13,353 bases of DNA from a virus, in UHGV virus genome UHGV-1729168. One strand, given 5' to 3'. Made by a program: the position numbers. Shown here piece by piece: positions 1-3,000 of the stretch; position 1 is the stretch's first letter; the number at the start of each line of letters is the position of its first letter.

Positions 1-3000
1 CCACTACCTGCGAAACAAGCAGACCAAAGAGTTCTTAGCCGAGCTGGAGAAAAACCACGAATCTGTGGTTTTTACTGAGCGCGGTGTACACGGTGGAACA
101 TATGGCGGGAAGTTTGTTGCTTATGATTATGCAGCATGGCTAAACCCCGGATTTAAATATGCAGCCTATAAAGTCCTGGATGACTACTTCACCGGAGAAC
201 TCCAGCATCGCAACAGCTTAAGTGCGCAGCTCAATATGAAGTGTCATGAGTTTGATCAGAAAAAAGATATGGCGAGCTTCTGCGGGCAAGGCCTTGCGGC
301 ATGGCGCTACACGAAACCTGGTTTGATCGCTGAGATTAACTCCCTGGCTAACCAGTTGCAGATCACAATCCCCGGGCTTCCGGGATGAGTGATCGTGTCA
401 TTGAATGCGCCTCCAGAGCGGGGCGCGACTTCTCAGCGTTCATGAAAGGCGAGAAGGGCGTGATGGAAGCATTGGCCTCGGTGGATGAGTTTGGCGAGCA
501 GTTGCGCCTCAACGGCTGTGTCAATCATCACTTTGTCAGCTACATGATGCGGAACTCGATCATGCAGGCATTCATGGACATGGCAAAAGCCGAGAAGAAA
601 GAAAAGCGCCGGTGTAAGCGAGCGGAAGCAAAAGCGAAGTAGCCATTACAAAGCCCATCTACTGGTGGGCTTGATAATGGCTTATACCCTGCACGGGATA
701 ACTTAACTGATATCCTTTTTAACGGATAAAGGTATTCAAGCCTGACATATCATGCGCTGTATCGTCGCCGTATTCCCGCATTAACCATGACCGCAGCCCG
801 ACCGGGAGACTCCTCTGCGCGAGTGTGCGGGGATAATCAAAAACGATACACACCGGGGTTTACCGCGTTAACGGAGCGCGGCGTTGTCCCCTCATGGTCG
901 CTGGTCCGGTGCGATGGTGGAAGAAACCGGACGATGTGTTACCTCGCAAGCTCTGTTATGTCATGTGTCTGATTTGTGATTTAAGTCGGATAATTGTCGT
1001 TGCCATTAAACAGAGGATTGATGACCGACAGGGTGGCATTGTTAGAATAAGACTTATTCTTATCTGTGCCGGGAATGAAAATGAAAAGAAATCTTCCGTT
1101 AATTATTTTGTTGTCTTCTCTGGTTATGGGCTGTACGCAACATAAAACAGATATGCCCCGACAGTTGGTTAAGGCATTACCACAATATCCGGCCTATGCA
1201 GCGGCAAATTATATAAAGGGACGGGTTGATGTGAAGTTTGATATTGGTGCTGATGGTACTGTCACCCGAATTGAGTTTATCCGTTCAGAGCCGCACCATT
1301 TGTTTGATGAGCAGGTTGTAAAGGCGATGGCAAAATGGCGATTTGAGAAGGACAGGCCGTGTAAAGGCGTGAAGAAAACGTTTATCTTTAGTCCTTCTGC
1401 ACCCTGATTATTTCATCAGAAATTAATTATCACTCTGTTGTTATTCTGTACATCCCGGCAGGGTAAGTCTTGTTCCGTCGGATATGAAGATGAAATATTG
1501 TTGGAGGACAGTGGGTACCTGCTCCTGTAACCGAACGTTCATTTCTCGTTATTTTTCATGCTGGCCGGGCGCAGATGCGTTGCATCTGTTGCCAGCCTTC
1601 TCCTGCAGGCTTCAATAACCCACGCTGAAAAGTTACCGGACCCTTTATGCTCAAGGGCGATGTTGATCTGTTCAATTATGTGATTGGGGAAACGGATATT
1701 GCGGGTTGTGGTTCTGCGGGTCCGGTTTTTCGATGACATATTTATTTCCTTTACTGATTGTCATATGACGGGGATTTTACATGGCTGAGCTTCGTACACT
1801 CCAGAGCAGAATCAAAACACTGAATACCCGACGGGTGAATATTCTGAAGGGGGAACAGCGTCGTGTCAGTGGCAGTGCACGTGTTTCCCTCAAGCGTCAT
1901 ATCTGGCTCAGGGACGCCGGGCAGTGCTGTATCTGTGGTCGTGTGGTTGACCTCTGTGACAGTGAACTTGATCACCGAATTGCACTTCAGTTCGGTGGTG
2001 GTAATGAGGAGACGAATCTCTGGACGCTCTGTACCGAATGCCATCGACAAAAGTCTGCTCGTGAAGCGGCGGGTGGTATGCCGGACCCGACGCTGCCGGA
2101 GGTGTCCGGAGGTAGTGGCAGAGCGGACGACATCATCGGACTGTAACCCGACCCGGGGGGGGGGATCATCCGGCGTAAAAAACGATCGCTTTGGACACCG
2201 CGCCCCCTCTCACGCAGAGAAAAAATTCCCGTTTCAGGGCAGTTAACATGTTAACTGGCTGCCCGGGCATTTTTGCGGTTTTTATCTTTATTATTCAGTT
2301 TGTTGTGCGGAAAAAATGTTAACAGGCTTTTTCAGCAAATGTTAACCAGGCAGCAGTTAACATTTGCGGCATGAGACGCCGGGAAAAATGGGCTGAACCA
2401 TACCCGGCTGAGTGCGTTCTGGACCCGGGAGGAGGCTGTGCTGACAACGCAAAAACGAAAATTTGCGCTGGCGCTCATGTCCGGGAAAAACAAAACAGCG
2501 TCAGCCATTGCCGCCGGTTATTCGGCGAAGACCGCCAGGGTTAAAGGCTCGCAGCTGGCAAAAGATCCGGAGGTGCTTGCGTTTATAGCCCGTAAACAAT
2601 GCGAGACGGTGGAGGTGGATGAGGTTCCTGTTTACCGGCAGAAAAAATCAGAGCAGGAGGATAAACCCCGTCGCCGTGAGGCGGCTGCAATACCACAGCC
2701 GGACGAAAACAATCCGGAGATGCCACCGTCCGCGGTGATGTCTCCTGGTATTGAATATATGGAGGATGGTCTTCCCGATCCGGTGAAAGCCATGGGGCGG
2801 ATCCTGGTGGAAAACCTCTGCATTGATCCGAAACTGGCACTGGATGCGGCCTGGCGTCTGGCGCAGTTCACACACCATAAAAAAGGCGATGCCGGTAAAA
2901 AATCGGCAAAAGGTGATGCCGCGAAAAAAGCGGCTAACCGTTTTGCGGTACCACCACCACCACGACTGGTGGTGAATAACGATAATGAGGGCAACGGATG

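Follow-up and report, generated by a model that had tools for sequence, protein, structure and literature searches.

Which role can be assigned to a single small gene that faces against the late genes of a prophage and begins beside its packaging genes? The question is raised by virus genome UHGV-1729168, of which a stretch of 13,353 nt was analyzed (this whole stretch is referred to below as the window). It covers late genes of an Escherichia coli lambdoid prophage and represents the late region of the BP-4795/Shiga toxin 1 (Stx1)-phage type. The gene belongs to the YlcI/YnfO (DUF3950) family and is termed ylcI here. A preliminary description of the window read its product as a small ribbon-helix-helix (RHH) DNA-binding protein that could be an autoregulator, could regulate the packaging genes and nearby GTTAAC repeats, or could be an antitoxin or part of another accessory pair. 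The reading favored here, with rather more confidence than doubt, is that of an independently transcribed, Arc-like RHH repressor or autoregulator.

The family assignment proposed earlier is borne out by profile searches. The 66 aa protein matches Pfam PF13132 (DUF3950) with E=3.1e-19 and 69 bits (cut-off 25), NCBIfam NF041551 (YlcI_YnfO_N) with 35.2 bits (cut-off 30) and PHROG 949 (phrog_949, function not assigned there) with E=8.8e-33. An identical protein is present in the databases (P0001; RefSeq WP_000095740.1, 'YlcI/YnfO family protein'). In an alignment of 60 family members with the window protein as the first row, the family core IRFP...NFSAWV[IL][ED]AC is kept in the window protein, and R16, F17, F37, S38, W40 and C45 are invariant throughout. 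Positions T12, R13, N14, I15, R16 and F17 are invariant within the lambdoid subgroup. The ylcI gene is thus a small prophage gene from a family that was already on record, and nothing about it is new at the annotation level.

The ATG of ylcI is at positions 1739–1737 on the minus strand and the start of the gene for an HNH endonuclease is at 1781, which leaves positions 1740–1780 between the two start codons and agrees with the 41 bp reported before. The statement that ylcI is the only convincing minus-strand gene also holds. All minus-strand open reading frames (ORFs) of at least 100 aa elsewhere are inside plus-strand genes that have a family match (small and large terminase, protease-capsid, portal and tail genes), and those at 12541–13353 oppose the tape-measure frame. 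The ylcI ORF is the sole minus-strand ORF not buried in a plus-strand gene, and a prophage of 99% identity is annotated in the same way in RefSeq.

Comparison with phage lambda shows that the ORF is a real gene whose N-terminal domain is under very strong purifying selection. Within codons 1–49 the window and lambda genes are separated by 27 nucleotide changes, 22 of them synonymous and five non-synonymous. This corresponds to about 1.6 synonymous substitutions per site (dS), 0.045 non-synonymous substitutions per site (dN) and a dN/dS ratio of 0.03. In all deep comparisons of these codons (lambda, Qin, DLP12 and BP-4795), dN/dS is 0.02–0.10. The synonymous sites are nearly saturated and yet the proteins are about 90% identical, which rules out a chance ORF or a mere patch of homology. 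The reading frame is intact in lambda, E. coli K-12, Stx phages and satellite elements across the Enterobacterales.

These data also bear on whether ylcI is a decaying relic or a recombination linker, in which the conserved 147 nt would be kept as a homology patch at a module boundary and not for the protein. The DNA that the window shares with lambda, DLP12 and Qin is indeed limited to positions 1594/1605–1739, i.e., to exactly this patch between otherwise unrelated flanks, and both flanks as well as the tail of the gene are mosaic. However, the patch begins precisely at the ATG, the frame is maintained across the Enterobacterales and the substitution pattern contradicts such a role. The linker explanation is scarcely credible.

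Past about residue 50 the tails of the window, lambda, Qin and BP-4795 types are unrelated, and homology to BP-4795 within the tail begins only at position 1585, which marks a junction. Modeling gives a predicted local distance difference test (pLDDT) score below 50 for residues 60–66. The variable 3' part of the gene also has an imperfect 16-nt inverted repeat at the BP-4795-type mosaic junction (positions 1563–1597, GGCCGGGCGCAGATGC / GCATCTGTTGCCAGCC). Folding of the ylcI 3' region is no better than that of shuffled sequence (z=0.68), and an Rfam scan of positions 600–2600 gave no matches.

Structure modeling of the protein suggests an RHH-like DNA-binding and dimerization domain, which is the likely assignment for the region encoded by codons 1–49. 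Two AlphaFold2 runs, from alignments of 22 and 60 sequences, both display an extended basic N-terminus (to about residue 18), helices at residues 19–32 and 37–55 and a disordered end, with a pLDDT of about 73. The monomer model has the strand-helix-helix topology of RHH proteins over about 45 residues; the strand cannot pair in a monomer. The 60-sequence alignment brought no gain in confidence (pLDDT 72.7 vs 72.9) or in Foldseek E-values. Foldseek comparison with the PDB gave a best E of 2.2, i.e., no significant match, but the list consists mostly of RHH proteins (NikR, ParD, Arc, TacA, YiiF, MazE9, NikA and PrpA) together with plant TCP domains. An RHH fold is likely but not proven.

The Arc and Mnt repressors, RHH proteins from the immI region of phage P22, are among the closest known systems. 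Like YlcI they are about 50–60 aa in length, have a strand-helix-helix layout, and their genes are likewise antisense to or embedded in a late region. YlcI and Arc share the motif N-[IL]-R-[FW]-P, with the YlcI asparagine and arginine at the base-contacting Arc positions N11 and R13; residues 12 and 14 of YlcI correspond to Arc Q9 and N11. An hhalign comparison sets NIRFP on Arc NLRWP in the expected register, with a probability of only 1.7–5.2%. Unlike arc and mnt, the window ylcI gene is not adjacent to the antirepressor-like gene, of which the 3' part is found at positions 2–388.

The gene is widespread and its genomic position is constant. The 1.2-kb region is found in 1488 of 5426 complete E. 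coli genomes, i.e., in more than a quarter of them, and 155 phage records encode a YlcI protein. E. coli K-12 has two family copies, ylcI in prophage DLP12 (b4589) and ynfO in Qin (b4533). Both proteins match the same family models above the curated cut-offs and are 86–90% identical to the window protein over residues 1–49, with unrelated C-terminal tails. They have the same position and orientation as in the window, with no further leftward gene ahead of nohD, a packaging gene of the Nu1 type. The divergent neighbor differs, in that cos and Nu1 are about 390 bp away in K-12 and the HNH gene is 41 bp away in the window, and the window has no DUF1398 or Bor genes downstream of ylcI.

Phage lambda itself has an intact 64-aa ylcI-type ORF on the minus strand (J02459 positions 48109–48303, corresponding to L002 3110–3304), with about 200 bp between it and the right cos end. 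Neither J02459 nor NC_001416 annotates this ORF, so that the family is unannotated in the lambda reference genome, although the ORF is under strong purifying selection. Its first 49 residues are identical to the YlcI-type consensus of lambda-type loci and it reads away from cos, but it has a weaker ribosome-binding site than the window gene and different upstream DNA. The DLP12 order rzpD, borD(-) ybcV(-) ybcW(+) ylcI(-), nohD mirrors the lambda order Rz, bor lambdap78 lambdap79 [orf], cos Nu1. Among about 250 lambdoid loci retrieved with three query types, the divergent neighbor is always a packaging gene, either Nu1, 389–547 nt away on the far side of cos, or HNH, 42 nt away. In the window, DLP12, lambda, BP-4795 and these viral loci, ylcI is located between the lysis genes and the packaging module and points away from the latter, from which no further leftward gene separates it in lambdoid loci. 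Few sequences in this mosaic region are as constrained as the predicted DNA-binding domain.

An exhaustive search of 1.8 billion representative sequences gave only 101 clusters, many of which are error-ridden copies of lambda control DNA. Genuine divergent members of the family are found only in the Enterobacterales and Gilliamella. Dozens of assemblies other than E. coli (Streptomyces, Cohnella, Pedobacter, a Nanosynbacter metagenome-assembled genome and others) contain the lambda segment, on contigs about 3.5 kb or about 48 kb long (loci L008–L035, L041, L059 and L066; proteins P0024–P0118 and P0121–P0216), and frameshifted copies of this segment account for many of the database homologues with unusual tails. 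These look like lambda control DNA that has contaminated sequencing runs and inflated the apparent diversity of the family.

The divergent homologues, with about 35–45% identity to the window protein, provide the main indication of function. They are found in small integrated elements that have a P4-type integrase, AlpA, often an AntA antirepressor and a P4-alpha-like primase-helicase, i.e., in P4-like satellites or phage-inducible chromosomal islands (PICIs). YlcI/YnfO has been listed among the accessory genes of Enterobacter capsid-forming PICIs, the 'integrase, AlpA, primase' satellites (PMC13612085), and the elements found here match that type. In 46 distinct satellite loci (from L005, L045–L082 and L328–L360) the homologue is the lone opposite-strand gene among the integrase, AlpA, AntA and primase genes, as ylcI is in the unidirectional window. 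A tblastn match in the Pasteurella satellite Pmp7 is antisense to an annotated repressor gene and was set aside.

The region of about 190 bp upstream of the satellite gene has a fixed architecture, with three GTG...CAC boxes of roughly 13 bp, in all 46 loci; it is a property of the satellites and is absent in the window. Boxes 1 and 2 are 12–13-bp GTG...CAC palindromes or pseudopalindromes, 23 bp apart, that flank a conserved CACGTCAA, which represents the TTGACG -35 element of the divergent, primase-side promoter. Box 3 is just after the TATAGT/TATGGT -10 element on the ylcI side. The overlap of operator-like boxes with divergent promoters is a property shared with arc and mnt. The boxes are element-specific and sort with protein residues 12 and 14, positions that also differ from the window protein. 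For residues 11–14, the box core is GTGCACAAACAC with TTKG, GTGTTTAAACAC with xYKG, TGTGCGCACA with AKKN, GTGTGCACCCAC with AKKH or DKKA and GTGCGGCCACAC with ATKK. In a partial Mantel test, box core and residues 12 and 14 are correlated with r=0.45 when the rest of the protein is controlled, a value reached in 0 of 5000 permutations. For the control residues 11 and 13, which face inward, r is 0.20, and for the remainder of the protein it is 0.003.

This covariation has the appearance expected of an RHH repressor and its operators and is supportive rather than conclusive. It suggests that the YlcI-like protein of the P4-like int-alpA-primase satellites is an undescribed repressor, and the autoregulation proposed earlier for the window gene appears, from the three boxes and their covariation, to be practiced by the family in satellites. 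A concrete and testable function, that of a minimal RHH repressor, may therefore be offered for DUF3950, and the co-varying operators hint that lambdoid helper phages and P4-like/PICI satellites may be linked in their regulation.

Several observations weigh against extending this function to the window. The covariation is drawn from related elements, whose phylogenetic non-independence is only partly controlled. In spite of the correct register, the hhalign comparisons with Arc and Mnt are not significant (probability 2–5% for Arc). No Pfam RHH family is matched at E<=0.1, and searches with the single sequence and two profiles gave no relevant PDB sequence match. The topology and the mostly RHH Foldseek list weakly favor the small RHH-type protein of the preliminary description, but none of the structure, Pfam RHH or PDB sequence comparisons gives it a significant match. 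The window-, BP-4795- and lambda-type upstream regions have no repeated or palindromic 10-mer in common, and no satellite-type box is present in the window at one mismatch or less. There are only weak promoter-like sites for ylcI, with no predicted terminator, and no experimental or functional study of any DUF3950 family member was found in the literature.

Candidate regulatory sites in the window are listed in the table below. A promoter scan found four sites where 2.1 are expected, and neither of the two ylcI candidates exceeds chance. The TAAAAT hexamer is kept in the BP-4795 subtype, yet it overlaps the HNH ribosome-binding region, so that its conservation is ambiguous. The palindrome GTCATATGAC is not conserved and is replaced by GCCATATAGC in the BP-4795 subtype. 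Lambda-type upstream DNA has CACGTCAA, as in the satellites, and three loosely similar CATCAA-type segments, but their spacing is unlike that in the satellites and no divergent -10 element follows; this is a lead only.

The late operon of lambdoid phages starts upstream of the lysis genes. The HNH gene is inside this operon and therefore needs no promoter of its own. It had been proposed that the promoters of both genes must overlap neighboring coding sequences, but this constraint is limited to the ylcI promoter, which must be in the 41-bp gap or inside HNH. The G+C content of ylcI is 49%, compared with 54–58% in the flanking packaging genes. Indirect evidence of expression comes from K-12, where ybcW and ylcI are listed as a convergent excludon that was detected in 50% or more of the RNA-seq samples surveyed (PMC12288877), and antisense placement is held to be typical of accessory (moron) loci (PMC7067206).

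The mechanism favored here can be stated on this basis. YlcI would be a minimal Arc-like RHH protein with a basic N-terminal arm, the strand RNIRFP, two helices and a dispensable mosaic tail. The gene would have a promoter of its own and be read in the direction opposite to the late operon, which would make it a moron-type gene; it would presumably be expressed in the lysogen and shut off when late transcription converges on it. A YlcI dimer or tetramer, assuming RHH-type dimerization, may read DNA by way of the alternate strand residues T12, N14 and R16, and may act in this phage as a sequence-specific repressor or autoregulator.

A different function, that of a packaging accessory factor, is suggested by the gene's surroundings. 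YlcI would bind at or near cos, e.g., at the repeat array at positions 2242–2363, and modulate the access or expression of terminase or HNH. The sequence ATGTTAAC is present there five times without mismatch, between HNH and the small terminase gene, where 0.34 copies are expected in the whole window. Three of the boxes are direct and two inverted, and two of the direct boxes are 23 bp apart, the spacing of satellite boxes 1 and 2. Nine consecutive G residues at positions 2155–2163, at the end of HNH, precede the array. The constant divergent packaging neighbor is also in keeping with a packaging function, as is a 129-aa satellite protein (P0189, L005 positions 4714–5103) that joins DUF3950 to the DNA-binding N-terminal portion of a Terminase_2 small subunit. 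Each of the two domains exceeds its Pfam cut-off, and the fusion is found on a single 6.8-kb contig.

The distribution of the array points the other way. It is present in all HNH/small-terminase-type loci examined and missing from those loci of the lambda, DLP12 and Qin types that were retrieved for this comparison, although the YlcI N-domains there are about 90% identical and the strand residues (TTTRNIRFPN) are identical. In two loci the array and the small terminase gene are present but ylcI is missing. The boxes thus track the packaging module and not YlcI, which speaks against the earlier proposal that YlcI regulates the GTTAAC repeats. In addition, satellite homologues adjoin the replication operon and not packaging genes, and small cos fragments without ylcI suffice for lambda packaging in cosmids. 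A packaging function is unlikely. The array probably represents the small-terminase recognition sites of cos in an HNH-dependent packaging module.

A further alternative is that YlcI is the RHH antitoxin of a toxin-antitoxin or abortive-infection pair, with the toxin elsewhere or lost. The closest structural neighbors include the RHH antitoxins TacA, ParD and MazE9, and the layout of an N-terminal DNA-binding domain with a variable C-terminal tail is of the same kind. In Qin-type phages a DUF1398 gene follows on the same strand after a gap of 43 nt. Genes of this type (YbcV/YdfO) are downstream of ylcI/ynfO on the same strand in many lambdoid phages (L166 positions 3277–3702; L408 positions 3185–3595; lambda lambdap78). 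However, an opposite-strand gene separates DUF1398 from ylcI in DLP12 and lambda, where it is 845 nt further on in lambda, and DUF1398 is absent from the window's phage type. There is no same-strand neighboring ORF in the satellites, nor in the window, where no minus-strand ORF of at least 40 aa is found in 1146–1538 and the only ORF upstream of ylcI is antisense to HNH. The conserved C-terminal region with which an antitoxin binds its toxin is not seen; the window tail is short, mosaic, unconserved and modeled with low confidence next to an N-domain under extreme constraint, and the satellite proteins (52–67 aa) have only a short basic tail. PADLOC defense-system models gave no match at E<=0.01. 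Unlike CopG/TacA/ParD-type antitoxins and plasmid copy-number repressors, ylcI has neither a toxin partner nor a plasmid replication context in the window. An antitoxin function is therefore very improbable, and the accessory pair suggested before finds no partner.

A more speculative reading is that the phage and satellite proteins form one cross-talking system. The YlcI of a helper phage would co-fold with the repressor of a resident P4-like/PICI satellite into inactive heterodimers or, alternatively, compete at the satellite operators; either way it would set satellite induction. The idea arises because the core residues F37, S38, W40 and C45 and the helices are invariant in both subfamilies, whereas the DNA-reading residues differ. 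It is a long shot. If correct, it would account for the extreme constraint under which a 49-residue domain is kept in lambdoid phages lacking a nearby operator of their own, and the Gram-negative int-alpA-primase satellites would gain a previously undescribed repressor.

Features of the window, with ylcI and its candidate signals first and the surrounding genes after them
Feature	Position	Strand	Basis or remark
ylcI/ynfO-family gene, 66 aa (DUF3950)	1539..1739	-	ORF with PF13132 and NF041551 matches
Codons 1–49: basic arm, predicted beta-strand RNIRFP (13–18), helix A (19–32), helix B (37–55)	1593..1739	-	
Variable C-terminal tail, residues 50–66, mosaic junction	1539..1592	-	tails differ among phage types
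Shine-Dalgarno AAGGA	1747..1751	-	7 nt upstream of ylcI ATG, read from sequence
10-bp palindrome GTCATATGAC, possible operator	1760..1769	.	between candidate -10 and Shine-Dalgarno
Candidate -10 hexamer TAAAAT in 41-bp gap, poor -35	1774..1779	-	inferred from sequence
Alternative promoter-like site inside HNH, CTGACA-17-CAGAAT, 9/12	1841..1869	-	promoter scan; lead only
Single GTG-N6-CAC box	1869–1880		abuts promoter-like site 1841..1869; within chance expectation
Antirepressor-like gene, 3' part	2–388	+	
Small ORF	385–642	+	
TonB_C-domain lipoprotein	1066–1407	+	
HNH endonuclease	1781–2146	+	
Terminase_2-type small terminase (TerS)	2438–3001	+	
Large terminase	2998–4659	+	
Protease-capsid fusion	4723–6660	+	
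Portal	6872–8236	+	head-tail and tail genes come after
Lipoprotein gene	12131–12544	+	
Tape-measure gene start	from 12608	+	frame runs off window end

The gene order around ylcI agrees with that of a 99.4% identical region in strain G1/2, where RefSeq gives TonB family protein, YlcI/YnfO family protein, HNH endonuclease and terminase small subunit. The TonB gene, which is convergent with ylcI, encodes a 113-aa lipoprotein with a TonB C-terminal domain and is classed as 'Rz-like spanin' in PHROGs. It is positioned after the lysis cassette, has a G+C content of 44% and looks like a moron. The second lipoprotein gene is probably another moron; it is located between the tail chaperone and tape-measure genes and encodes 137 aa with a weak PEGA-domain match, at 43% G+C. 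In the head module (positions 4723–8236) a prohead protease-major capsid fusion of 645 aa is ahead of the portal gene, an order that is unusual for HK97-like head modules.

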